Assembly: GCA_002710785.1 (NCBI GenBank)
Contig: PAMC01000018.1
Coordinates: 10,515-74,514, forward strand
DNA: 64,000 bases
Reading direction: 5' to 3'
Source: a bacterium
GTDB lineage: Bacteria > Patescibacteriota > Minisyncoccia > Phycocordibacterales > UBA918
The notes under the pieces are model-generated. The model was not told where the DNA came from, searched no databases, and was given only the letters and a program-made list of their open reading frames with translations. A program made the position numbers and the translations under genes. Of the stretch, positions 1,046 through 16,146 are shown piece by piece; position 1 is the first letter of the stretch, and the number at the start of each line of letters is the position of its first letter.

Positions 1046-1993
1046 ATGAGTAATATTACAGCAATAATCAATTTTTTTATTTGCATCGCTTTACTGGTGC
1101 CAAACCTGGCCTTGGCGCAGCAGGGGAGCATTATGAGCGTATATGGCGAGGCACTCAGCAACCAAGCAGCACAGGTGAGCGACTACGACCGGGGCGCAGG
1201 CGGGCTGGTTACCTGTACTGGTTTCTCGGACTGCAATTTCTGCAGTTTTGGTGCCATGGTCAATAAAATCATTAATTGGCTGTTTGGTTTTCTAACGGTA
1301 GCCGCCGTGCTTATTTTGGCTTGGGCTGGCTTTCGGTTGGTGACGTCAGGTGGTGACACTACGGTAATGCAGTGGGCCAAAGAACGCATTGTGTACGTCA
1401 TTATCGGGTTTGTTCTCATGCTCGCGTCGTGGCTCATTGTCGACACCATTTTGCGTGGCTTAACCGGCAGTGAGCAGGGTATGAACTTCTGGGGCAGTTT
1501 TGATGTCGAGAATTGCGGGTTTATGCGAGAGCCTCAGTCGCGGACGTACGACGAGTACGAGGTAACCGTTACCCTGGAGGAAATGTTAAATGAACAAACT
1601 GCCGGCCCGATAAACAATCCAAATGGAACTAGTGTCACACCCGACATCGAAGGCATGGTCAGTCTAAACGAAATGGGGTTAGTGGTAGCAAATGGATTCG
1701 AGGGCATTAGCGGTCCGGGACGCACTGATTTAGCGCACCCTGAGGTAGCTGCAGCTGCACTGCGTATGCAAGAGCTCGCTGTACAAAGATATGGACAACC
1801 GGTCTTTCAAGTTACCGCAGCGTACACAGACGGTGTCGGGCACAGTGCCAACAGTAGACACTATCAGGGTATCGCAATTGATTTTGATCCAGTTAATGGC
1901 GCATCAACACAACAGGTCGCTAATTTAGCCCGAGAAGTCGGATTTACCTTCGTGCTCGATGAGGGGTCGCATGTGCATGGAGATATGCGATAA
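1046..1993 (+). CDS. Fusion protein: signal peptide plus two-TM VirB2/TrbC-pilin-like N-terminus, with a C-terminal peptidase M15 (LAS/VanY-like) domain
   Basis: Signal peptide, then two TM helices separated by a short loop (…LILAWAGFRLVTSGGD… / …VIIGFVLMLASWLIV…). C-terminal motifs SRHYQGIAIDF and HVHGD are typical of the zinc-binding H-x-D…H triad of M15 peptidases. Confidence 0.55.
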   Translation: MSNITAIINFFICIALLVPNLALAQQGSIMSVYGEALSNQAAQVSDYDRGAGGLVTCTGFSDCNFCSFGAMVNKIINWLFGFLTVAAVLILAWAGFRLVTSGGDTTVMQWAKERIVYVIIGFVLMLASWLIVDTILRGLTGSEQGMNFWGSFDVENCGFMREPQSRTYDEYEVTVTLEEMLNEQTAGPINNPNGTSVTPDIEGMVSLNEMGLVVANGFEGISGPGRTDLAHPEVAAAALRMQELAVQRYGQPVFQVTAAYTDGVGHSANSRHYQGIAIDFDPVNGASTQQVANLAREVGFTFVLDEGSHVHGDMR

Positions 1994-2958: not shown

Positions 2959-3741
2959 ATGGAGAAATTCACACTGCAAAACCGCAAAGGGCAGAATATT
3001 GTCGGCATTCTCGCTAAGCCAGTAGGAGATATTAAAGGCACCTGCGTTTTGCAGCACGGGTGGTCAGGAAAGAAAGAACAAGACCATGTTGTTGCTATCC
3101 AGGAAGCCTTCACCGATAACGGCTGGCAAGTATTTAATTTCGACGCCACCAACTCCTTTAATGAAAGTGATGGGGAGTTTGCAGACTCAAGGCTCGGACT
3201 CCACTACGAAGATATGGAAGATGTGTGTCAGTGGGTACAGCAACAAGATTGGTCCGTTGGTCCATTAGCAGTCTCTGGTCACTCAATGGGTGGCTATGCT
3301 ACCGCTAGATATGCAGAGGACCACCCAGAAGATGTGGCACTCATTGCATCAATCGCACCGGTGGTATCTGGGAAGTTAACGACAGAATCGAAAGAACGGC
3401 GGGAACCGGGAATCATAGCCAAATGGAAAGAAGAGGGTGTACTGGTAAGTGAAAGCTCTACCACACCAGGACTCATCAAGCGAGCACCCTACTCTATCCA
3501 CCAAGAGTGGCTAAATCATGACCTACTACCAAATGCAGACAAGCTCACCATGCCCGTATTTCTGCTGACCGGGACCGATGATGGTTCTTGTCCACCAGAC
3601 CATGTGCAGCAGCTATTTGACGTTATCCCACACGACAATAAGGTATATGAAATTATCGAGGGGGCACCACACACGTACCGCACAGAGGAGGATTTGAAGG
3701 AGGTAAGGGAGCGTTTGAGTAAGTGGCTTAGCGTACAATAG
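2959..3741 (+). CDS. Alpha/beta-fold serine hydrolase
   Basis: GHSMGG nucleophile-elbow motif; 2-nt gap from the upstream gene, so probably operonic. Confidence 0.65.
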   Translation: MEKFTLQNRKGQNIVGILAKPVGDIKGTCVLQHGWSGKKEQDHVVAIQEAFTDNGWQVFNFDATNSFNESDGEFADSRLGLHYEDMEDVCQWVQQQDWSVGPLAVSGHSMGGYATARYAEDHPEDVALIASIAPVVSGKLTTESKERREPGIIAKWKEEGVLVSESSTTPGLIKRAPYSIHQEWLNHDLLPNADKLTMPVFLLTGTDDGSCPPDHVQQLFDVIPHDNKVYEIIEGAPHTYRTEEDLKEVRERLSKWLSVQ

Positions 3742-3745
3742 GAGT

Positions 3746-4219
3746 ATGGATAAACAAGAGGTCACATTCGCTCGCAACTTAGTCAAAGGCAAGATAGCAG
3801 AAACGGTATTTGCCCAGATGCTTCGCTCTACTGGTGAATTTACTGTCTTAGAGTTTGGCTATGAGAAAATCATCCCGGAGTTAGTGAGTCGTGGCAGTCA
3901 CCAGAATGACGACATGGTGGAAGCGCTACGGACCGCCCCTGACTTTGCGGTGATTAATAACAAAACCAAAGAAGTGCATCTAATTGAAGTGAAGTATCGG
4001 CGAGAATTTACTGCTAGTGATGTGCTTCGTATAGCAGAGAGGATGAGTGAGAGCTGGAATCCGTCATACTTATTCTTAGCTACTGAGGATGGCTTCTACT
4101 TTGGGGAGGTGAAGGAAATTATTGCCAACCAGGGTGACATACAGCGACTGGACCATCCACAAATACCCGTAGAAACGCAACAAGAATTTTTACAGATACT
4201 TAACGACTTTGAAGGATAG
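3746..4219 (+). CDS. Hjc-like PD-(D/E)xK nuclease-fold protein
   Basis: Motifs E…PDFAVIN…LIEVKY give E / PD / ExK spacing like archaeal Hjc resolvases and restriction-endonuclease-like folds; 157 aa. Confidence 0.5.
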   Translation: MDKQEVTFARNLVKGKIAETVFAQMLRSTGEFTVLEFGYEKIIPELVSRGSHQNDDMVEALRTAPDFAVINNKTKEVHLIEVKYRREFTASDVLRIAERMSESWNPSYLFLATEDGFYFGEVKEIIANQGDIQRLDHPQIPVETQQEFLQILNDFEG

Positions 4220-4360
4220 GTCGGTCCTGATTTCCACGGATTACTGTTGACTTTGGGTTAGATTTGACTATATTAGGAGGTAACAAGGTCGGCCCCGCTG
4301 CATTCGTGCATGGGCCGGCTTTCTGTTTATATACTGTATTTTTGCTACAATGCGGTGCAA

Positions 4361-5323
4361 ATGGAATCCTACACCAAACCGTTTCTAACAATTGACCAGC
4401 AATTAGATTTGATTGCTTCACGAGGAATGGATATTGGTGACCGTGCGTACGCTGCGGATTGCCTCAAGAACATCGGGTACTATCGCCTCAGCGGCTACTG
4501 GTACCCACTACGAGAATCATCGGTAGTTGAAGACGATGAGGGTAAAAAGACACGGGTGGTCGGAGATTCCTACCGTGACGGCTCCACTTTTAAGCAAGTC
4601 ATAGATATCTACACATACGATAAACACCTCCGGCTCCTGATGCTGGATGTGCTGGAACGAATTGAGATTGCACTGCGTACTGATATTACTCTGCAGATGG
4701 GTCAGTACAGTCCTTGGGCATACAGGGATGGTGACGTTTTGGACCAACGGTTTGTAACTGATGTTACTCCTGGTTTTACTGAATCACGTTTTGCCACATT
4801 CGTGAATCGTTTTGATGATATGGTTGCTCGGTCAAAAAGTGACTTTGTAGACCACTTCAAGAAGAAGTATGAAGACCCGCTACCAATCTGGGCAGCGGTA
4901 GAGTTATGGGATTTTGGAATGTTGTCTGTGTTTCTCTCTGGTATGAAATATCGAGATAAGCGAGCTATTGCAGAGAGGTATGGGGTAAAGCCGGAAATAC
5001 TACCATCTTGGGTTCGTACATTGGCTGACGTACGAAATATCTGTGCGCATCACGGAAGGCTCTGGAACCGCACATTGGTATCCATGCCAAAAACGGCTGG
5101 TATAGAGGTGGATGACTTGAAGCATCTAGACGAAGGGTTTGCTCGGGAGAAGATATACAGTGCGGTAGCCATAGCCCGACACATGCAACGTATCCTCAAC
5201 CCATCTTCTACTTGGGCCGATAGCATCATTAGTCTCAATGAGTCGTTTCCAGCAGCACCCGGTATTGCTTTTAAGCAGATGGGCTACCCAGAGAATTGGC
5301 TAGAGCTGGGTCTGTGGAAGTAG
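4361..5323 (+). CDS. Abortive infection protein, Abi_2 family (AbiD/AbiF-like)
   Basis: N-terminus KPFLTIDQQLDLIASRGMDI…NIGYYRLSGYWYP matches the Abi_2 family signature; start chosen at the internal ATG (MESYTKPF). Confidence 0.7.
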   Translation: MESYTKPFLTIDQQLDLIASRGMDIGDRAYAADCLKNIGYYRLSGYWYPLRESSVVEDDEGKKTRVVGDSYRDGSTFKQVIDIYTYDKHLRLLMLDVLERIEIALRTDITLQMGQYSPWAYRDGDVLDQRFVTDVTPGFTESRFATFVNRFDDMVARSKSDFVDHFKKKYEDPLPIWAAVELWDFGMLSVFLSGMKYRDKRAIAERYGVKPEILPSWVRTLADVRNICAHHGRLWNRTLVSMPKTAGIEVDDLKHLDEGFAREKIYSAVAIARHMQRILNPSSTWADSIISLNESFPAAPGIAFKQMGYPENWLELGLWK

Positions 5324-5390
5324 GTCAGGATTATCTTTGCTTAAACACACCAAGACTACCCAACCAAAATTTCATGGGGTGAGTATAGCA

Positions 5391-5425
5391 AAAAGAAAAG
5401 CCCGCCCCGGTGTGTTGGGGCGAGC
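5391..5425 (-). terminator. Intrinsic terminator for the minus-strand 4-gene operon
   Basis: Stem GCCCGCCCC / GGGGCGAGC with an 8-nt loop. On the minus strand it is followed by a U-tract (the plus strand reads aaaagaaaa). Confidence 0.45.
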
Positions 5426-5448
5426 CAGTAATTCGGTTGTAGGACCGA

Positions 5449-5709
5449 CTAGTTCTGCCGTCGTTCTTCAAGGAGTACGATAGCCGCCGGTTGACCATGG
5501 ACAGCCGGGTCGTAACGCTCAACCAGGGTTAGCTCATCGAAACGAGCCCTCATACCAATCCCGTCGACAAACCCGAACGCATTGGATGCCTTTTCGGGTA
5601 GGTCGGGCGGTTGGTTGAACAGGGTCAATGTCTCCTTAACGTAGAAGCGACCCCGCCTGGCGACAAAGTAGTCACCCTCTGCGAGACTGCCGAATGTGAC
5701 GAAGGGCAT
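5449..5709 (-). CDS. Hypothetical protein (86 aa), last gene of the GC-rich operon
   Basis: ORF 9 nt downstream of the previous gene. The N-terminus MPFVTFGSL weakly recalls the AIG2/GGCT FVYGSL motif; this is unverified. Confidence 0.45.
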   Translation of the reverse strand: MPFVTFGSLAEGDYFVARRGRFYVKETLTLFNQPPDLPEKASNAFGFVDGIGMRARFDELTLVERYDPAVHGQPAAIVLLEERRQN

Positions 5710-5718
5710 TTCGACCCC

Positions 5719-6069
5719 CTACGTCAGAACCAGTTGAGCCGATGAGGGTTTCTCGACCGGCATGAATCCGTTTGTTTCCGTGATAAGCCGAGAGATACGA
5801 CCACCCAGTACCACCATCCGAAAGATAGGTATCCTGACTTTCACGACATACTCCGGCACCCCAGCATCGAACACCGTGGTGGAGTTGATGATGGGCATCC
5901 GAAGCGTTCGCCCGGCATGAGCGAGGGTCACCGAGCGGGTACTCATCATGGCCGTGAAGTCAGCCAGCTCCATGTACTTGGACAGAGACCCGACCTCCTT
6001 GCCGATATACGGCAATACGATGGACGGGATGTACCAGTTGAGAGTCACTTTAACTTGTTTGGGTTGCAT
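5719..6069 (-). CDS. Hypothetical protein (116 aa)
   Basis: ORF 5 nt downstream of the previous gene; no recognisable domain. Confidence 0.5.
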   Translation of the reverse strand: MQPKQVKVTLNWYIPSIVLPYIGKEVGSLSKYMELADFTAMMSTRSVTLAHAGRTLRMPIINSTTVFDAGVPEYVVKVRIPIFRMVVLGGRISRLITETNGFMPVEKPSSAQLVLT

Positions 6070-6074
6070 GTCGT

Positions 6075-6383
6075 TTACTTTCTGATGATTTCAAACTCGC
6101 CGAGGATGACCAGTTTGGGTTCAGCATGAAGCGAAGCCGTTCCGTTTACTGACGGAACAATCCGCTTGATGTCGTGTCCGTGGAATTTCGGGCAACTCAC
6201 CCGAAAGCTGACACCCTCCTCCGGCCCGTAGCCGATGGAGGTGATGGTTCCGCAGATGATGTGGTCTGCCGAGTCACTGAAAATCAGCGTTTGACCCAGC
6301 ACGGCACCGATGAGGTCACCCAAGCCGAGTTTGTTGAGTTCAACCCGGAGTAGTTCAGCTCCAGCCATATTCTTCTCCTTCAT
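6075..6383 (-). CDS. Hypothetical protein (102 aa) with a C-x3-HGH motif
   Basis: The start overlaps the methyltransferase stop by 4 nt (ATGA). CPKFHGHD could be a metal-binding motif; family not recognised. Confidence 0.5.
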   Translation of the reverse strand: MKEKNMAGAELLRVELNKLGLGDLIGAVLGQTLIFSDSADHIICGTITSIGYGPEEGVSFRVSCPKFHGHDIKRIVPSVNGTASLHAEPKLVILGEFEIIRK

Positions 6384-7003
6384 TTCTGGACCAGGACAGA
6401 CATTGCGCCGTCAGCCCAATGATGTGTGGTTGCAAGGACTGTGAAGCCAGATTGCTCCAGCATCGCAGCGAGTTCATCAAGGTCGTAGTGAGCGTGATGC
6501 AGATGGGGTGTGCCATCAGGGTGTTTTTCAAGCTCCTCATGGCTTTCATAAACAGCTGGCATAACCACCATCATGACTCCACCGGTAACCAGTATACGCT
6601 TCAGTCCAGCAAGGACTGTCGGCATATTGTGCTTGGGTTCACCACTGAACGTGCAGCAGCACCACAATCCATCAAACGATGCCTCTGGAAACTCGAGCTT
6701 CCGATAGGACATGAGCTCGAACTGCTGGTCTGGATAGGCGTCTTGAGCCAACCTCACCATCTCGGGCGAGTGGTCGATACCGATGTATTGCAAGCCCTGG
6801 TCGAGAAAGCGGTAGACATAGCGAGCCCAACCACATCCGACATCGAGCATTCGGTCTCCCGGAAGGGCGTCGAAGAAGGCTTGTAGGTCGGCATCTGGTT
6901 CTTCACCCTTCCACTGTGTCCAAGTTGGACTCTTGGCAAAGTCATCGGCATATGCAACGCCGAGACGTTCCGCCAGGTCTGGGTCAACGTTTGTATCGTT
7001 CAA
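6380..7003 (-). CDS. Class I SAM-dependent methyltransferase
   Basis: Motif I MLDVGCGWARY. Start reassigned to TTG at 7003 (MNDTNVDPDLAERLG…), preceded by AAGGGAGAG, which resembles a ribosome-binding site. The longer annotated N-terminus looks like non-coding read-through. Confidence 0.6.
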   Translation of the reverse strand: MNDTNVDPDLAERLGVAYADDFAKSPTWTQWKGEEPDADLQAFFDALPGDRMLDVGCGWARYVYRFLDQGLQYIGIDHSPEMVRLAQDAYPDQQFELMSYRKLEFPEASFDGLWCCCTFSGEPKHNMPTVLAGLKRILVTGGVMMVVMPAVYESHEELEKHPDGTPHLHHAHYDLDELAAMLEQSGFTVLATTHHWADGAMSVLVQK

Positions 7004-7123
7004 GTTTCTCTCCCTTGTAAAGGTGCAATTGTGTACTTGTGTTCGAGTCGAACAATGCCACAAATCCTTTTGTTTTTCAATAAAAATCTCCCTCACGCTG
7101 AACGATTGTTGTCTCCCAGAACA

Positions 7124-7129
7124 TTGACA
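7124..7129 (+). promoter_or_regulatory. TTGACA -35-like hexamer upstream of 7178..7732
   Basis: Exact TTGACA about 48 nt before the start codon; no convincing -10 at canonical spacing. Confidence 0.2.
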
Positions 7130-7177
7130 GAACAAAGTTTTATTATACAGTATTTATAGCAAAAAGGAGCTCCTATC

Positions 7178-7732
7178 ATGATTAAGTTCTTCAATCCCAG
7201 CGACCTCGGACACAAGGCGGTCTACGCCGTCTATTTGCTGGCCTGCGCTCTGTTTCCGGCATACCCGATGCAGCGGTATCTCAAAGAGAAAACTGGTCGC
7301 GGTTTCCTCGGACCGGCAGAATGGTCCATACTGGCGTTGTCCAGTATCGGGACAGTCTCAATCTATGGGACGCTGTTCTACTACTTGGGTTGGCCTTCAA
7401 TTTCGGTCATCCTTCCGTTCCAGGTCTTTGTGGCAGCATACGCATCAGTCAGTGCTTGCTGGATTACCGGACTCTACGTCTTCATCGTACTGAGTTCGAA
7501 TTGGCTGCCGTGGTTCAGCTTCAGAAAAATCGCTGTCGCAGAAAGGTTCACAGGTGGCAAGACCGAATACATCCTCGCTCGTGGCCTGTACTGGCGGCGT
7601 AGCCCTCCCGGCAAGTACTACACAGAGCGGCAGCCGTGGGGAGGTATCCCCAAAGGCTGGCGGGTAGCAGAGCCATCAACAGCCGAAGGAGAAAGGATAA
7701 GTGCTGCATTAAAAGCTGCACTGAAGGCCTAA
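7178..7732 (+). CDS. Integral membrane hypothetical protein
   Basis: Multiple hydrophobic helices; an intrinsic terminator follows immediately. Confidence 0.5.
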   Translation: MIKFFNPSDLGHKAVYAVYLLACALFPAYPMQRYLKEKTGRGFLGPAEWSILALSSIGTVSIYGTLFYYLGWPSISVILPFQVFVAAYASVSACWITGLYVFIVLSSNWLPWFSFRKIAVAERFTGGKTEYILARGLYWRRSPPGKYYTERQPWGGIPKGWRVAEPSTAEGERISAALKAALKA

Positions 7733-7758
7733 TACTCTCAGGCACCCTCACGTTATTG

Positions 7759-7787
7759 GCTGGTCCTCCATAGGGCCAGCTTTTTTC
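7759..7787 (+). terminator. Intrinsic terminator
   Basis: GCTGGTCC-tccata-GGGCCAGC followed by TTTTTT. Confidence 0.55.
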
Positions 7788-7790
7788 TAT

Positions 7791-7821
7791 ACAAACGCCC
7801 CAGTTACCGGAAACTGGGGCG
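7791..7821 (-). terminator. Hairpin downstream of the minus-strand M23-like gene
   Basis: 10-bp stem CGCCCCAGTT / AACTGGGGCG; only a weak U-tract on the minus strand. Confidence 0.4.
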
Positions 7822-7842
7822 GACGCGTATTGTTGTATCGGG

Positions 7843-8451
7843 TTAGACCCACAGAGGAACAAGGCTCTTGAAGCCAAAAGGGCTAGGGTTGCGGTCAAGT
7901 CGAAACACGATGAAGTGAAGGTGGTCACGGTCAGTCAGTCCGGTTTTCCCGACAACACCGATGACCTGCCCTGCTCGCACTGCAGCTCCCTGATGTACTC
8001 CAGCATCACGGACCGAATTCTTCGCCAAATGGCAGTATTGAGTGAATTCAGTCGGGGTATGTTGGATGGTGATGTAGTTCAGCTTATCTCGGAAACTGAT
8101 ATCATCACCCCACTCGTCAGAGTGCTCTTGCACCTCAACCACCATTCCGCCTGAAGCGGCCAGGACTGGAGTTCCATCAAGGACCAAGAAATCAATGGCA
8201 TTCTTGAAAGCAGCTCGGTGTGTCAGTGGACTTTTGGCACACAGGTAATGCGCCGTGTGATACAGCTCATCAGCTGGTATGCCGTCCTTCAATGCTTCTG
8301 CGTGACGCACAGCCTCGTCAGGTGTCACATTGAGCGGAAGACGGTATGTCTCTTTGCTCACTTCATCATCCCACATCGGGTCGTCAGCCCAACGGTCAAT
8401 ATCGTCCATTTCGATACTCCTAAATTGTCCACGTTCGGTTTTCATTTCCAA
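7843..8451 (-). CDS. Peptidase M23 (LytM)-like protein, no signal peptide
   Basis: YITIQH…YCHL…GQVIGVVGKTGLTDRDHLHF fits the M23 HxxxD / HxH motifs. Confidence 0.6.
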   Translation of the reverse strand: MEMKTERGQFRSIEMDDIDRWADDPMWDDEVSKETYRLPLNVTPDEAVRHAEALKDGIPADELYHTAHYLCAKSPLTHRAAFKNAIDFLVLDGTPVLAASGGMVVEVQEHSDEWGDDISFRDKLNYITIQHTPTEFTQYCHLAKNSVRDAGVHQGAAVRAGQVIGVVGKTGLTDRDHLHFIVFRLDRNPSPFGFKSLVPLWV

Positions 8452-8490
8452 GTACGAAAACTAACACAAATACTATAAAGTTACTATTTA

Positions 8491-9063
8491 TCAATGTTTT
8501 CTTCGTATAAGCAAAAGTGCCACAAACAAACCATTGGCAATGCCCCAAGCAGCCGGAAACAAGCTGGTTAGGATTGAATAGTGAGATAAAGCGGCAACAC
8601 TGAGTAAGTGCCTAAATGAGTTAATAGCGTAAGTAGATATAGTCTCAGTGTGAGGTCTATTCCAAGATTTACGAATGGTCGGTATAAAACCAAGCATGCC
8701 AACTGTTACAAGTAGAATCATTGCGGTAACTGGTTGTTTTGCCAACAGCCACAATCCTAGAGCGACCAACGCTGCTAAAAAGAAAAGGGTGTCAGACCGG
8801 GTAATATCTTTATCGCCTTGGCGCATCCCCAGTACAAAAATACATAGTGATATAGAACCTGCTACTAGGGTTACCCATGCACCTGGACCTGCATCATCAC
8901 TAAGCTGAAGGGCAAAGATGATTATCGTAATGAGACCCCATACAAATCAAGTATATACATGTGGCTTTGTTTTTCCTTTTAGCACGTCACGCAAGTATGG
9001 AATGTAACCAACAACTCCAAGAATGACAGTTATGACCCCTATTATTTCCTTAATTTCAAGCAT
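8491..9063 (-). pseudogene. Small multi-TM membrane protein whose frame is interrupted by a single in-frame TGA (plus 8947-8949). It may instead be two separate small ORFs.
   Basis: The 38-aa ORF MLEIKEIIGVITVILGVVGYIPYLRDVLKGKTKPHVYT ends in a TGA that is in frame with the downstream 111-aa membrane ORF (annotated 8491..8826). The second ORF has no ATG for ~50 codons after the TGA. Confidence 0.35.
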
Positions 9064-9127
9064 AATATTTGTAACAATGCTAACACAACAAAAGCCACAC
9101 ACCCGCGGGGTGTATGGCTTTAATAAT

Positions 9128-9682
9128 TTAGCTTTTAAGTTGTTGTATTAACTCACTCGCATCCTCCTTAGACATCGTATCCAAGTTGCCGAGCATCTGG
9201 TTCTTCTCATCTTCATCGGTAACCTTGGTGTCGATTAACTGGGTTAGGTAGCGTTTCTGAGCATCTGAAGCTTGGTAGGTAGCAGCGGAGTAACTGTCAC
9301 TTTGTAGCCCAAAGCTCGGTACGGGACCAGCTTCCTCGGCAGCAAAGGCGTTGGGGAATTTACCAGCCCGAACACACGCATCTGTTAGTGCACTCGAAAA
9401 AGCAAATTTAACCGAGTTACTAATATACCGATTGGACTGTGACAGGACCGACATGCCCCGACCTTGCCCAATTACCCGACCACCAATCTTTAAGGTACAA
9501 AGGTAGGCAATGAGTCCAGGGTGATTAAACACGGTACTGGTCTGCATATCCTCTTCAAAGGTGGCGGTAATATCGTAGACTCCTAAGTGTTTCTCTATCT
9601 CCTCACGGATTGGATGCTTCGCTGGCTGTTGTGGTTGCACTGTTGCATAACTCCTTGGTTTAGTAGTTGTTGCATTATTCAT
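9128..9682 (-). CDS. Hypothetical protein (184 aa), third gene of the ArdC-like operon
   Basis: Its ATG overlaps the stop of the upstream small ORF (tTAA/ATG arrangement); no recognisable domain. Confidence 0.5.
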   Translation of the reverse strand: MNNATTTKPRSYATVQPQQPAKHPIREEIEKHLGVYDITATFEEDMQTSTVFNHPGLIAYLCTLKIGGRVIGQGRGMSVLSQSNRYISNSVKFAFSSALTDACVRAGKFPNAFAAEEAGPVPSFGLQSDSYSAATYQASDAQKRYLTQLIDTKVTDEDEKNQMLGNLDTMSKEDASELIQQLKS

Positions 9683-9851
9683 GATTATTTAGTTTGTTTA
9701 GTCTCTTGATAATTACGGTTTTGGGTTTAATGGTGACGGAAATAATGTCGCCTAACGAAAAACCAGCGGTAGCCAGTCGACTATCACTGATTCGTATACA
9801 TGGCTCATCCTTGGCTCTACGCTCGGACACCACGGTCATTTGGCGAGTCAT
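9675..9851 (-). CDS. Small AbrB/MazE/SpoVT-like DNA-binding protein (58 aa); absent from the supplied ORF track
   Basis: Hand translation gives MTRQMTVVSERRAKDEPCIRISDSRLATAGFSLGDIISVTIKPKTVIIKRLNKLNNHE, which has the swapped-hairpin pattern (R-I/V…LG…GD-I…V…K…IIK). ATGA overlap with the upstream stop; TAA overlaps the downstream ATG. Confidence 0.45.
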   Translation of the reverse strand: MTRQMTVVSERRAKDEPCIRISDSRLATAGFSLGDIISVTIKPKTVIIKRLNKLNNHE

Positions 9852-10180
9852 GCTGGTTTGTGGTTAGCAATAGGTTCCGTCTGACTGATGTGGAAGAGGT
9901 TGATACTTCTTCGCCTTGTTTGCTTCTCTCCGGTCTCTGGGTCTTCTGATTCGATTAGAGTGTAGCTTTGGATAGCCTTGGCTCCTTTCTTTACGCTGTA
10001 CCCGTTACGTCGCCAAGCTGCAAAACTCATACAGCTATGGTACGGGTCGTAGGTGGCAGCGTACTCTGGCCCTAGCTCTGGGTGTTCGGCTATTGCTTGC
10101 CTCACGGCTTCAGCGGTCTTCTCAGAACCCAGATATGGTGACACTGGGCGGTCTGATAATACTTCTTGTACCTTTTTCAT
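9848..10180 (-). CDS. ArdC N-terminal-like ssDNA-binding domain protein (110 aa)
   Basis: FAAWRRNGYSVKKGAKAIQ resembles the ArdC-N (DUF1738) F-x-x-W…G…V-[KR]-KG-[EA]-K-[GA] signature common on conjugative elements. Confidence 0.45.
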   Translation of the reverse strand: MKKVQEVLSDRPVSPYLGSEKTAEAVRQAIAEHPELGPEYAATYDPYHSCMSFAAWRRNGYSVKKGAKAIQSYTLIESEDPETGEKQTRRRSINLFHISQTEPIANHKPA

Positions 10181-12968: not shown

Positions 12969-13163
12969 ATGTCTAACACTACTCTGGCACATAAAATTTG
13001 CATTGCGTATCGCCATTTATTCAATGTACGTGAGTCACAACCACTAAACGCTGGCACCATTAGTGCTATGGAAGAGCTTGGATTAATCCTGAAACCAATC
13101 TACCAGCGAATGCGAAAAGAAGGCTGGGTATTACAAAATGGTAAACTAACAAAACATGAGTAA
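12969..13163 (+). CDS. Small hypothetical ORF between primase and recombinase
   Basis: Fills the gap; 64 aa; no domain; could be Xis/RDF-like but there is no evidence. Confidence 0.25.
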   Translation: MSNTTLAHKICIAYRHLFNVRESQPLNAGTISAMEELGLILKPIYQRMRKEGWVLQNGKLTKHE

Positions 13164-14892
13164 ATCACCGAAGAAGGACGCAGTCGAACGAGAAACATTT
13201 GCAGCTATTGAGCGTGGTGATTTTAAGGAGTGTTACCTGATTTATAACCGCAAAAGTAGCGATGAAGCGGATAGTCAAAAGAATTCGATTGAGTTTCAGA
13301 ATGCAGAAAGTATGCGCTTTGCTGCACGAGAATCGCTTCCAGTAGCTGGAATTACTATCACAGGGCTGTGTAATAACGGCTCCATCTCTGAACGACATTC
13401 TGGTTTTAAGGAAGATGAAAACTTTGTGATTTCTTCTGATGGTAAGGTAACGTACCAGATTGACCGACCAAAGTTTCAGCGGTTATTGCAGTTGGTTAAT
13501 CAGGGTTACATCAAAGGTGTCATTTGTCTTTGTTGGGACCGTATCAGCCGAAACAAATCTGATGATGCTATCGTTCGTAAGCTAATGAAGAAAGGGGTGG
13601 ATATTCGCTTCGTACATGCTCACTACGACGACAGCAGTGCCGGAGAGCTCCATATGGATATCGACGGTATGTTTGCGCAACATCACTCCCGGGTGACTAG
13701 TGAAAAGGTCCGTTTGAGTAAGGTAAACAGTCGCAGTCAGGGTAAGTGCACATACCGTGCTCCAATCGGCTATCTCAATGAAGGTAATATGGACTGGAAG
13801 CCATTCGACCCTGAACGAGCACCGATGGTGAAGGAGATGTTTGAACTATATGCTACAGGTGATTGGAGTCTGTCTGATTTAACACGACACGCTCGTAAAA
13901 TTGGTTTAACTGCACCACCAATGCGACGACGTCGTACCAAAGAGGAGATGCTGGCAGACGAGGAAGTACGACTGGAGAAAGTCACCAGTCCGATTCAGCA
14001 AGGATACATGGCCCAGATTCTCAAGAACAAGTTTTACATTGGCTACATCATTGGTAACAACGGTAAAGCTGGTGAGTGGGTGAAGAGTGAAAGCCATGAG
14101 CCACTTGTTGATGAGAAATTGTTTAACAAGGTTCAGGCTCTATTGGGTAAGAAGAACGTCAGCACACACTACACGGAGAAGTTGGACTATCCATTGCGTG
14201 GGATTATGCGGTGTTCCTGCTGTGGGCGAATCTATACTCCGTACGTGAAGAAGGGAAACCAGTACTACTACAGTCGCTGCAAAGATGGGTGCACTAATAA
14301 AATGAAGAATTTGCATTACACTTATGTAGTAGAAAAAGTACGGAAGTTGGTTTCCGGTCTGCACTTTACCGATGACGAGCTGGAAGAATTTGAAAGCCGA
14401 GCTGGGACGGATATCGCTCTTTTGGAGAACAAGCGTGACCGTGAAATGGAGGTTATCGAACGCAAGAAAAAGAAAGTGCGTGATGAATTAGCATATTTAC
14501 GCTCTGAGCGGGTACAGTTGCTAAAAACAGGTGTATTCACTCCTGAAGGGTACGTAGAGGAGACAAATAGGCTGGAGGGTGAGATTGATGATTTGCAGAC
14601 TGAGGAGCAGGTATCTGAGGAAGCAATGCGAGAGCTAATGAAGGAAGTGGTACATCTTTCAGAACTACTAAAAAACGTTGTGCCTATTTACGATTACGCC
14701 AATCCGCAAGAAAAAGAGAAAATTATCCGAGCTATCTTTTCAGAACTCTCGTTTTCTCACGATACGTTGCAATATAAGGTTAAAAAAGGGTTTGAAACCT
14801 TTGATAAGCGTATTTCTGCTTTTTGCGGGCCCACGTGGACTCGAACCACGGCCGCTGGTTTTGGAGACCAGAATTCTACCACTAAACTATAG
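13156..14892 (+). CDS. Large serine recombinase (integrase); 3' end overlaps tRNA-Trp on the opposite strand
   Basis: Catalytic YNRKSSDEADSQ (compare YxRVSTDEQ), DRISR motif, recombinase-domain APIGYLNEGN, zinc ribbon CSCCGR…C…C, C-terminal coiled coil. Confidence 0.8.
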   Translation: MSKSPKKDAVERETFAAIERGDFKECYLIYNRKSSDEADSQKNSIEFQNAESMRFAARESLPVAGITITGLCNNGSISERHSGFKEDENFVISSDGKVTYQIDRPKFQRLLQLVNQGYIKGVICLCWDRISRNKSDDAIVRKLMKKGVDIRFVHAHYDDSSAGELHMDIDGMFAQHHSRVTSEKVRLSKVNSRSQGKCTYRAPIGYLNEGNMDWKPFDPERAPMVKEMFELYATGDWSLSDLTRHARKIGLTAPPMRRRRTKEEMLADEEVRLEKVTSPIQQGYMAQILKNKFYIGYIIGNNGKAGEWVKSESHEPLVDEKLFNKVQALLGKKNVSTHYTEKLDYPLRGIMRCSCCGRIYTPYVKKGNQYYYSRCKDGCTNKMKNLHYTYVVEKVRKLVSGLHFTDDELEEFESRAGTDIALLENKRDREMEVIERKKKKVRDELAYLRSERVQLLKTGVFTPEGYVEETNRLEGEIDDLQTEEQVSEEAMRELMKEVVHLSELLKNVVPIYDYANPQEKEKIIRAIFSELSFSHDTLQYKVKKGFETFDKRISAFCGPTWTRTTAAGFGDQNSTTKL

Positions 14893-14896
14893 GCCC
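14826..14896 (-). tRNA. tRNA-Trp (anticodon CCA)
   Basis: Hand-folded. Acceptor GGGCCTA/TGGGCCC (one G-U pair), D-arm GTTT-AGTGGTA-GAAT, anticodon stem CTGGT/ACCAG with loop CTCCAAA, T-arm CGTGG-TTCGAGT-CCACG, discriminator G. The CCA end is not encoded. Confidence 0.75.
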
Positions 14897-16061: not shown

Positions 16062-16146
16062 TGGTGCCTCGGGAGGGAGTCGAACCCTCATGGCTTGCGC
16101 CATGCGATTTTGAGTCGCACGTGTATACCAATTCCACCACCGAGGC
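16062..16146 (-). tRNA. tRNA-Leu (anticodon CAA), CCA encoded
   Basis: Hand-folded. Acceptor GCCTCGG/CCGAGGC, anticodon stem TGCGA/TCGCA with loop CTCAAAA, long variable arm, T-arm GAGGG-TTCGACT-CCCTC, A-CCA end. Confidence 0.8.

Follow-up and report, generated by a model that had tools for sequence, protein, structure and literature searches.

Positions 5,391 to 7,003 of the 64,000-nucleotide (nt) stretch of DNA analysed here (contig PAMC01000018.1 of assembly GCA_002710785.1, from a bacterium of the Patescibacteriota; hereafter the window) hold a minus-strand unit of four genes, in which a class I S-adenosylmethionine (SAM) methyltransferase is followed by three small orphan proteins of 97, 116 and 86 amino acids (aa), designated p97, p116 and p86. 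The unit is probably best explained as a mosaic cargo operon of the integrative element in which it lies, made up of exchangeable modules and a p116–p86 pair. That it is a mosaic, and not a unitary four-gene system, is likely given the arrangement of these genes in related loci.

The sequence-only reading of this DNA had proposed a single, tightly coupled and undescribed four-gene system, either a modification pathway or a module of phage origin. The tight coupling stands, with gaps of 5–11 nt between the genes and one terminator, but the genes are not conserved as a set, an outcome which that reading had itself named as grounds for abandoning the proposal. With a mosaic, the claim of a four-gene modification system is not one to be carried forward, and the set would consist of shuffled accessory genes that came together by chance. 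Mosaic cargo operons of this sort, in which a mobile element carries orphan genes specific to a lineage, are a familiar phenomenon, to which the unit adds one more example. Its value lies in three very rare, lineage-restricted families under purifying selection, with a p97 model that has no significant structural neighbour in the libraries searched; in a clean case of modules being swapped at gene boundaries among the mobile elements of ultra-small bacteria; and in p116/p86 as a testable candidate for toxin-antitoxin-like function.

Distribution of the four genes in related loci

Related loci are referred to here by number. The full four-gene set was found only in near-identical copies of the window island (L008–L016); copies of this island come from Tara and other marine assemblies. 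Elsewhere, the set is broken at gene boundaries. In L018, nucleotide similarity to the window spans 4898–6379, covering part of the abortive-infection gene AbiD that lies beyond the unit, the terminator, p86, p116 and p97, and ends at the methyltransferase stop codon. The breakpoint is at 6379/6380, and the place of the methyltransferase is taken by an unrelated gene for a 130-aa protein, which lies 9 nt ahead of p97. In L007, similarity begins at 5390, immediately beyond the terminator, and continues into p97, where the contig ends, and the genes downstream are of YafQ, PemK and Phd type; AbiD adjoins p86 in L018 (as a copy 95% identical), but not in L007. L019 and L020 share only p86 and the terminator (5388–5710), the rest being different. 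The terminator after p86 is kept in L018, L007 and L019.

Adjacent p116 and p86 genes, at 49–62% identity, are present in L004/L005/L028 and in L031 without p97 and without a methyltransferase, and with a divergent 156-aa protein alongside. p86 is preceded by a 288-aa protein in L025/L026 and by a 115-aa protein in L027/L030, and no gene was called upstream of it in L019–22. The p116–p86 pairing was seen in the window lineage, L007, L018, L004/L005/L028, L024 and L031: p116 is followed by p86 at every locus with downstream sequence available, whereas p86 has alternative upstream genes or none. On the sequences compared, this pair is the only part of the unit that stays together over evolutionary distance. 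The relatives of p97 occur with a GNAT acetyltransferase and a protein termed ‘pG’ in L001 and L003, with pG alone in L033, and by themselves, adjoining Nudix or UPF0150 genes, in L034–L036.

Because the set falls apart at gene boundaries in these loci, three modules are distinguished: the methyltransferase, p97, and p116–p86. They would be independently exchangeable and drawn from the flexible gene pool of the lineage, as a generic methyltransferase, an autonomous p97 β-barrel and a two-gene pair. The unit would be part of the cargo of an integrative element that also has a serine recombinase, a primase-helicase, type IV secretion system (T4SS) pilins, AbiD and an M23 peptidase. In this it resembles the cargo or ‘moron’-like operons of integrative elements and defence islands, being a self-contained unit of atypical composition with its own promoter region and terminator, placed beside AbiD in a tRNA-bounded serine-recombinase element, and having a gene content that is swapped between related elements. 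It differs from them in that only the methyltransferase has a recognisable function, and in belonging to a poorly studied host lineage.

The same loci bear on the idea that the four genes constitute one undescribed pathway for the modification of a small molecule or peptide, with the small proteins making or binding a product that the methyltransferase tailors. The tight coupling and single terminator are in keeping with such a pathway, as is the retention of all four genes in every island copy, and p97 relatives elsewhere follow another tailoring-type enzyme, the GNAT acetyltransferase. However, the set is limited to near-identical island copies; the methyltransferase is swapped for the unrelated 130-aa protein in L018 while the other three genes are retained; p116 and p86 occur without p97 or any methyltransferase, and p97 is often alone. 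The unit also contains no biosynthetic enzyme, precursor-like open reading frame (ORF) or transporter, and the putative metal-binding and GGCT motifs of its small proteins, described below, are not conserved. A pathway of this kind is judged very improbable.

A more modest proposal casts p97 as the dedicated partner of variable modifying enzymes, whether as their substrate, specificity factor or inhibitor, so that methyltransferase plus p97 and p116 plus p86 would be two modules. p97 directly follows an enzyme gene both in the window (the methyltransferase, across an 11-nt gap) and in L001 (the GNAT gene, across a ~10-nt gap), and in L003 the GNAT gene is one gene further off. Yet the upstream gene in L018 encodes a non-enzymatic-looking 130-aa protein, no such enzyme is adjacent to p97 in L033, L034–36 or the P0016 contig, and the more recurrent neighbour of p97 is pG, which is absent from the window. 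Such a partnership is considered quite unlikely. The pG proteins themselves are ~160 aa long (158–167), share 35–54% identity and a conserved WGSxVxDG...S.V.PY.DEM pattern, and have no match in Pfam or the PDB and no homologue in the window.

All three small-protein families are rare. A word-indexed search of 5.8 billion proteins gave only 4–5 clusters per family (four for p116). An exhaustive phmmer search, in which the three proteins joined end to end were compared with 1.84 billion representatives, gave 33 hits, comprising one p116 cluster, ~9 of p86 and ~23 of p97, the p97 count being taken at 50% identity and the single p116 cluster likewise being a 50% cluster. As these cluster counts (~23, 1 and ~9) differ, p97, p116 and p86 have different distributions. 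The p97 hits from the exhaustive search are stand-alone proteins of ~95–112 aa, save one of 146 aa (P0040; JGI 3300050821, on a 957-bp contig) with an N-terminal CxxC...CxxC zinc-ribbon extension, which is the only domain fusion in the three families. The named sources of p97 homologues are a Candidatus Paceibacterota metagenome-assembled genome (MAG) and a groundwater Parcubacteria MAG, which gave the only two matches of a trimmed p97 alignment among 185,579 species genomes. From the taxonomy of the MAGs that carry homologues, and not from a marker gene of the window, the host is taken to be probably a marine bacterium of Paceibacterota/Parcubacteria type.

The p116–p86 pair

p116 and p86 would form a self-contained module of one basic and one acidic protein. 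The isoelectric point (pI) is ~10 for p116 and ~5.2 for p86, and this contrast is kept in the L004 pair, where that of p116 is 9.4. In the mechanism envisaged, p86 would bind or neutralise the product of its upstream partner gene, making the pair toxin-first and toxin-antitoxin-like, or defence-associated. This suggestion is drawn from the basic/acidic pI values, the pattern of a dependent upstream gene and a reusable downstream one, and the company of Abi and toxin-antitoxin genes, and it is put forward tentatively, as something possible rather than probable.

The analogy is with toxin-first type II toxin-antitoxin systems such as higBA, mqsRA and hicAB, which p116/p86 resembles in having two small co-directional genes, 9 nt apart, with a basic upstream and an acidic downstream product. 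The likeness extends to p116 never being found without p86, to the re-use of p86 with other upstream genes, and to a setting in the company of Abi and toxin-antitoxin genes, in regions that are mobile or variable.

Several points weigh against a mosaic centred on such a pair. Unlike toxin-first systems, p116 and p86 have no sequence or profile similarity to known toxins or antitoxins; no toxin fold, no recognisable DNA-binding domain and no PADLOC or Pfam match was found for either, with NCBIfam, PHROG, PDB and profile searches included. When the two proteins were modelled as a fusion, the predicted local distance difference test (pLDDT) score was 48, too poor for a structure or an interface to be read. 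Their closeness to toxin-antitoxin and Abi genes may only reflect shared variable regions. As to the modules, p97, p116 and p86 occur together in three contexts (the window, L018 and L007) at 86–97% identity, and given these contexts among close relatives they could conceivably be a functional trio. Finally, most of the contigs compared are short, so that the absence of a partner is sometimes the end of the contig.

Two neighbours of the pair's genes were also noted. The divergently transcribed 156-aa protein beside p116–p86 is 65% identical between L004 and L031, which makes it a possible third conserved neighbour, and in L004 a tRNA gene is found close by on its far side. The 115-aa protein that precedes p86 in L027 and L030 has a C-terminal stretch which, by eye only, is like a helix-hairpin-helix of the kind in the RNA polymerase alpha-CTD.

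Transcription unit and encoded proteins

The features of the unit, of its surroundings and of the related loci are collected in Table 1. Each of the four genes has its own ribosome-binding site, whereas the upstream region is shared and the terminator single, an arrangement from which the four genes are predicted to be one transcription unit, probably transcribed together. A consensus promoter scan returned no complete minus-strand promoter for the unit, and a candidate −10 box was read by eye. A promoter-like site on the plus strand (7124–7151) precedes the divergent gene. For the methyltransferase, gene callers return an identical 207-aa protein in L008. The intrinsic terminator described in the sequence-only reading is present, as are its 5–9-nt gaps, which measure 5 nt between p97 and p116 and 9 nt between p116 and p86.

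Table 1. Positions of the features discussed. Coordinates are those of the window unless a locus is named.
Feature	Position	Strand	Remarks
T4SS pilin-type protein	1046–1993	+	315 aa
ORF upstream of AbiD	3746–4219	+	157 aa; 4 nt from the preceding hydrolase gene
AbiD/Abi_2 abortive-infection gene	4310–5323	+	Pfam Abi_2 2e-53, PADLOC AbiD 2e-69; convergent with the unit
12-nt direct repeat TATAGCAAAAAG, downstream copy	5384–5395		brackets the four-gene unit
Intrinsic terminator	5399–5426	-	10-pair stem with 8 G-C pairs and a T-run; 22 nt past the p86 stop codon
p86 gene	5449–5709	-	86-aa acidic orphan protein; last gene of the unit
p116 gene	5719–6069	-	116-aa basic orphan protein; third gene
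p97 gene	6075–6368	-	97 aa; second gene; the 102-aa ORF with its start revised to the ATG at 6368
Class I SAM methyltransferase gene	6380–7003	-	207 aa, TTG start behind AAGGGAGAG; first gene
Candidate -10 box TATAAT, TG before it	7139–7144	-	~136 nt upstream of the methyltransferase start; by-eye reading
12-nt direct repeat TATAGCAAAAAG, upstream copy	7155–7166		between the unit and the divergent gene
Divergent hydrophobic protein	7178–7732	+	184 aa; GC 0.541, GC3 0.616; in the GC-rich block
Large serine recombinase ORF together with the tRNA-Trp gene	13156–14896		ORF of 578 aa
tRNA-Trp gene	14825–14896		on the strand opposite the recombinase ORF
tRNA-Leu gene	16062–16146
125-nt repeat, six copies	L004:10662–20067		over 10 kb
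125-nt repeat, five copies	L025:2814–6817		over 4 kb
125-nt repeat	L031:116–250, 4295–4429
125-nt repeat	L019:3878–4012
125-nt repeat	L027:2863–2997
pG gene	L001:903–1379; L003:4663–5166; L033:2934–3704
Divergent 156-aa protein	L004:9389–9859; L031:3009–3479	-	beside p116–p86
tRNA gene	L004:9165–9236		just beyond the 156-aa gene
115-aa protein	L027:2193–2540; L030:1–84		before p86

The start of p97 has been revised. The longest ORF reading gives 102 aa (6075–6383), the form in which the gene had first been described, and for this ORF the 4-nt ATGA overlap reported at the methyltransferase junction does exist. The gene is, however, taken as 6075–6368, because the ATG at 6368 is preceded by AAGGAG at 6 nt distance, and because p97 homologues and gene calls all start at the equivalent ATG, giving proteins of 95–97 aa. 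The junction is thus probably an 11-nt gap, and the protein 97 aa long.

All three small ORFs are genuine coding genes under purifying selection, as the ratio of nonsynonymous to synonymous substitution rates (dN/dS) against homologues at 86–97% identity is 0.04–0.31 (0.18–0.31 for p97, 0.04–0.07 for p116 and 0.10–0.19 for p86). In comparisons with more distant homologues, dN stays at 0.23–0.42 even though dS has reached saturation or values near 1. The earlier view that the small proteins belong to no family that could be named has held up. p97, p116 and p86 have no match in Pfam, PHROGs, PADLOC or NCBIfam, and sequence and family-profile searches of the PDB gave nothing for these proteins or for pG. 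Scanned singly, the 28 members of the p97 family and 13 of the p86 family matched nothing in Pfam and, as 41 members together, nothing in PHROGs, and PADLOC gave nothing on selected family members and partner proteins. Comparison of the three families with one another by hhalign showed no relationship.

Structure prediction likewise yielded no named family. The AlphaFold2 model of p97 (pLDDT 84) has an N-terminal helix followed by a six-stranded β-barrel, and Foldseek returned no significant fold match for it, the best hits having E-values of 0.16 in the PDB and, with TM scores of no more than 0.56, 0.023 in BFVD. Labels such as Sm, Tudor and PNPOx-like were rejected for this barrel, these being generic small barrels with non-significant scores. 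The model of p116 and p86 is unusable at the pLDDT given above.

Two motifs to which the sequence-only reading had drawn attention did not survive comparison across the families. The C-x3-HGH segment of p97, thought able to bind a metal, is present in the window copy, but its Cys and His residues are not conserved across the 28 members, leaving metal binding unsupported: the Cys is Ser in the closest homologues and Ser, Thr or Ala across relatives, the two His are replaced by Arg, Met and others, and the consensus of the segment is S/T-P-R-F-x-G. The near-invariant residues of p97 are instead G25, H36, G40, E51, G52, P60 and G64. In p86, the resemblance of the N-terminal MPFVTFGSL to the AIG2/GGCT motif falls away, since none of the 13 members matches PF06094, or any Pfam family at E<=1, and the Gly of FGSL is changed in five of the 13 (Glu in four, Ala in one).

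The methyltransferase, by contrast with the small proteins, was correctly assigned from the sequence alone, with Pfam matches well above the cutoffs to Methyltransf_25 (1.1e-15; 58.5 bits against a cutoff of 27) and Methyltransf_11 (2.3e-15; 57.5 bits against 21.2). Its translation contains MLDVGCGWA and YIGIDHS, representing the glycine-rich motif I and the acidic residue that ends β2 and binds the ribose of SAM. It shares this Rossmann SAM core, with its LDVGCG motif I and acidic residue after β2, with the Methyltransf_11/25 enzymes (UbiG-like and sugar O-methyltransferases; PDB 6uv6, 9rfr), and its best relatives in the PDB are small-molecule O-methyltransferases, at E-values of 6e-8 or weaker. 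Unlike these enzymes, it reaches no equivalog-level family (the best NCBIfam match, to DVU_1556 at 71 bits, falls short of the cutoff of 155), and its 207 aa include no additional domain for substrate binding. From these matches it is predicted to be an enzyme of generic class I SAM type, with small-molecule, protein or RNA substrates. Its distribution shows that it is not a conserved partner of the downstream genes.

A PADLOC match of the methyltransferase to mad2 (1.7e-19) spans only the methyltransferase core, at profile positions 248–408 of 492. mad2 is the predicted methyltransferase of the eight-gene MADS, which is predicted to encode an N6-methyltransferase and methylates DNA (10.1101/2023.03.30.534895). 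The window protein resembles mad2 over this core, whereas the eight-gene MADS locus is not present around its gene, a PADLOC scan of nine neighbouring proteins having returned AbiD only and no further mad gene. Membership of MADS was rejected on these grounds, and because the (D/N)PPY motif of DNA methyltransferases is absent from the 207-aa protein and its domain is of Methyltransf_11/25 type.

On the phage origin considered in the sequence-only reading, the element would carry the unit as a module derived from phage or directed against defence systems, such as a restriction-protecting methyltransferase with small anti-defence proteins. Small orphans on a mobile element fit this picture, an ArdC-N-like ORF is found elsewhere in the island, the gene after the p116/p86 pair in L004 is AcrVA2-like, and p97 has its best BFVD matches, all of them non-significant, among uncharacterised phage proteins. 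Nevertheless, no relative of the p97, p116 or p86 families was found on 2.9 million IMG/VR contigs, none of the 41 members matched a PHROG, and at the DNA level the region matched nothing in collections of phages and plasmids, including the GenBank phage collection. The methyltransferase, of small-molecule Methyltransf_11/25 type and lacking (D/N)PPY, does not suit the role either, and a phage-derived or anti-defence module is accordingly regarded as highly improbable.

Composition, repeats and island setting

The GC content of the operon block is 0.52–0.57, compared with 0.44–0.48 on the AbiD side. The unit had been described as GC-richer than its flanks, which is the case on that side, but the GC-rich block is wider than the operon, extending through the divergent gene to ~8200, with an AT-rich dip only at the promoter region that the unit shares with that gene. 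At third codon positions, GC (GC3) is 0.56–0.69 in the four operon genes and 0.38–0.53 in the island genes, and in chromosomal genes past 15 kb it is mostly 0.59–0.65 (range 0.53–0.65). The codon-usage log-likelihood, in bits per codon, is −0.05 to +0.09 for the operon genes, +0.06 to +0.21 for core genes and −0.02 to −0.17 for island genes. The distinct composition noted earlier is borne out by this comparison: the operon block differs from its flanks, yet is not simply host-like, having codon usage intermediate between that of core and island genes. This composition is consistent with pieces acquired separately.

A 12-nt direct repeat, TATAGCAAAAAG, brackets the four-gene unit. The two copies are the only exact ones in the 64 kb, with 0.42 expected even when one mismatch is allowed, and an inverted copy with one mismatch lies at 7780–7791. 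The similarity ends of L007 (5390) and L019/L020 (5388) fall inside the downstream copy. The pair could be a recombination scar or chance.

In the related loci, a different repeat of ~125 nt follows the p86 terminator (L004, L025, L019, L027 and L031), with 15 distinct copies at 85% mean column identity. The copies all share the strand of the genes, most of them beginning within ~60 nt past a stop codon; the genes between them include RelB/ParE pairs, GNAT, Nudix and DUF7689 genes, and orphans. Folded as single-stranded DNA, the repeat gives a stem in two boxes, of 10 and 9 pairs, with an asymmetric bulge and a large open centre, the bottom strand folding best (z −3.9 and −4.3). It has no Rfam match and shows no covariation in the stem. 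Four pattern matches to it in IMG/VR were set aside as chance, as the covariance model found no copies there.

The repeat invites comparison with the attC sites of sedentary chromosomal integrons, such as that of Vibrio cholerae. It resembles them in its ~120–125-nt length, the mutual similarity and single orientation of the copies, their start after a stop codon, the toxin-antitoxin, acetyltransferase, Nudix and orphan cassettes that they separate, and the imperfect two-part stem with bulged bases. Unlike attC, however, its terminal boxes are CCTACCGACCC/GGGTCGGTAG rather than RYYYAAC/GTTRRRY, some of the ‘cassettes’ of the related loci are multigenic and include genes on the opposite strand, and no IntI-type recombinase was seen among the genes of 20 kb of L004 or of the other repeat-bearing loci. 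The repeat is also absent from the window.

If the operon block were, or descended from, an integron-like gene cassette, the flanking 12-nt repeats would be relics of such sites. p86-type genes in the related loci are bounded by the 125-nt attC-like repeat, in 15 distinct copies in gene orientation and with its bulged two-box stem; the exact 12-nt repeat brackets the operon, with the L007 and L019 breakpoints inside it; and the best match to the covariance model in the region is at the syntenic spot (5369–5399). That match is non-significant (6.3 bits, E 0.65), though, and the model finds no copy in the window, L007 or L018. In addition, no integron integrase was found in the loci examined, canonical R boxes are not at the element ends, the stem shows no compensatory changes, and a 12-mer pair within 2 kb is only mildly unlikely by chance. 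A cassette origin for the operon block is rated as decidedly unlikely.

A broader combination of these observations would make p116/p86 a Patescibacteria-restricted addiction or defence module, in which p86 neutralises several unrelated effectors (p116, the 288-aa protein and the 115-aa protein), and which circulates together with p97 as integron-like cassettes marked by the 125-nt repeat; this is thought unlikely. The attC-like arrays of the related contigs, which lie outside the window, could, if confirmed, extend integron-type cassette systems to the Patescibacteria. A literature search on integrons in Patescibacteria and the candidate phyla radiation returned nothing relevant.

To return to the mosaic operon, the integrative element that carries it occupies the window from 1 to ~15,000. 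Its cargo and machinery comprise T4SS pilins, a peptidase S51, a hydrolase, AbiD, an M23 peptidase, an ArdC-N-like ORF, an AAA_25 primase-helicase and a large serine recombinase. The recombinase ORF ends within the tRNA-Trp gene, with which it shares 68 nt, an overlap that probably marks the integration end of the operon-bearing island; a tRNA-Leu gene lies further along. An Rfam scan of window positions 3000–10000 and of the repeat-bearing loci gave tRNAs only. The divergent 184-aa protein has no family match in Pfam, PHROGs, PADLOC or NCBIfam, and its gene is present only in copies of the window island. Directly upstream of AbiD, and kept with it in every island copy, is a 157-aa ORF with weak matches (E 0.02–0.05) to TnsA-like and restriction-endonuclease-like N-terminal domains. 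At the start of the island, the 315-aa protein has an N-terminal part of T4SS pilin (TrbC/VirB2-like) type and, in an unusual pairing, a weak C-terminal match of Peptidase_M15/hedgehog type.

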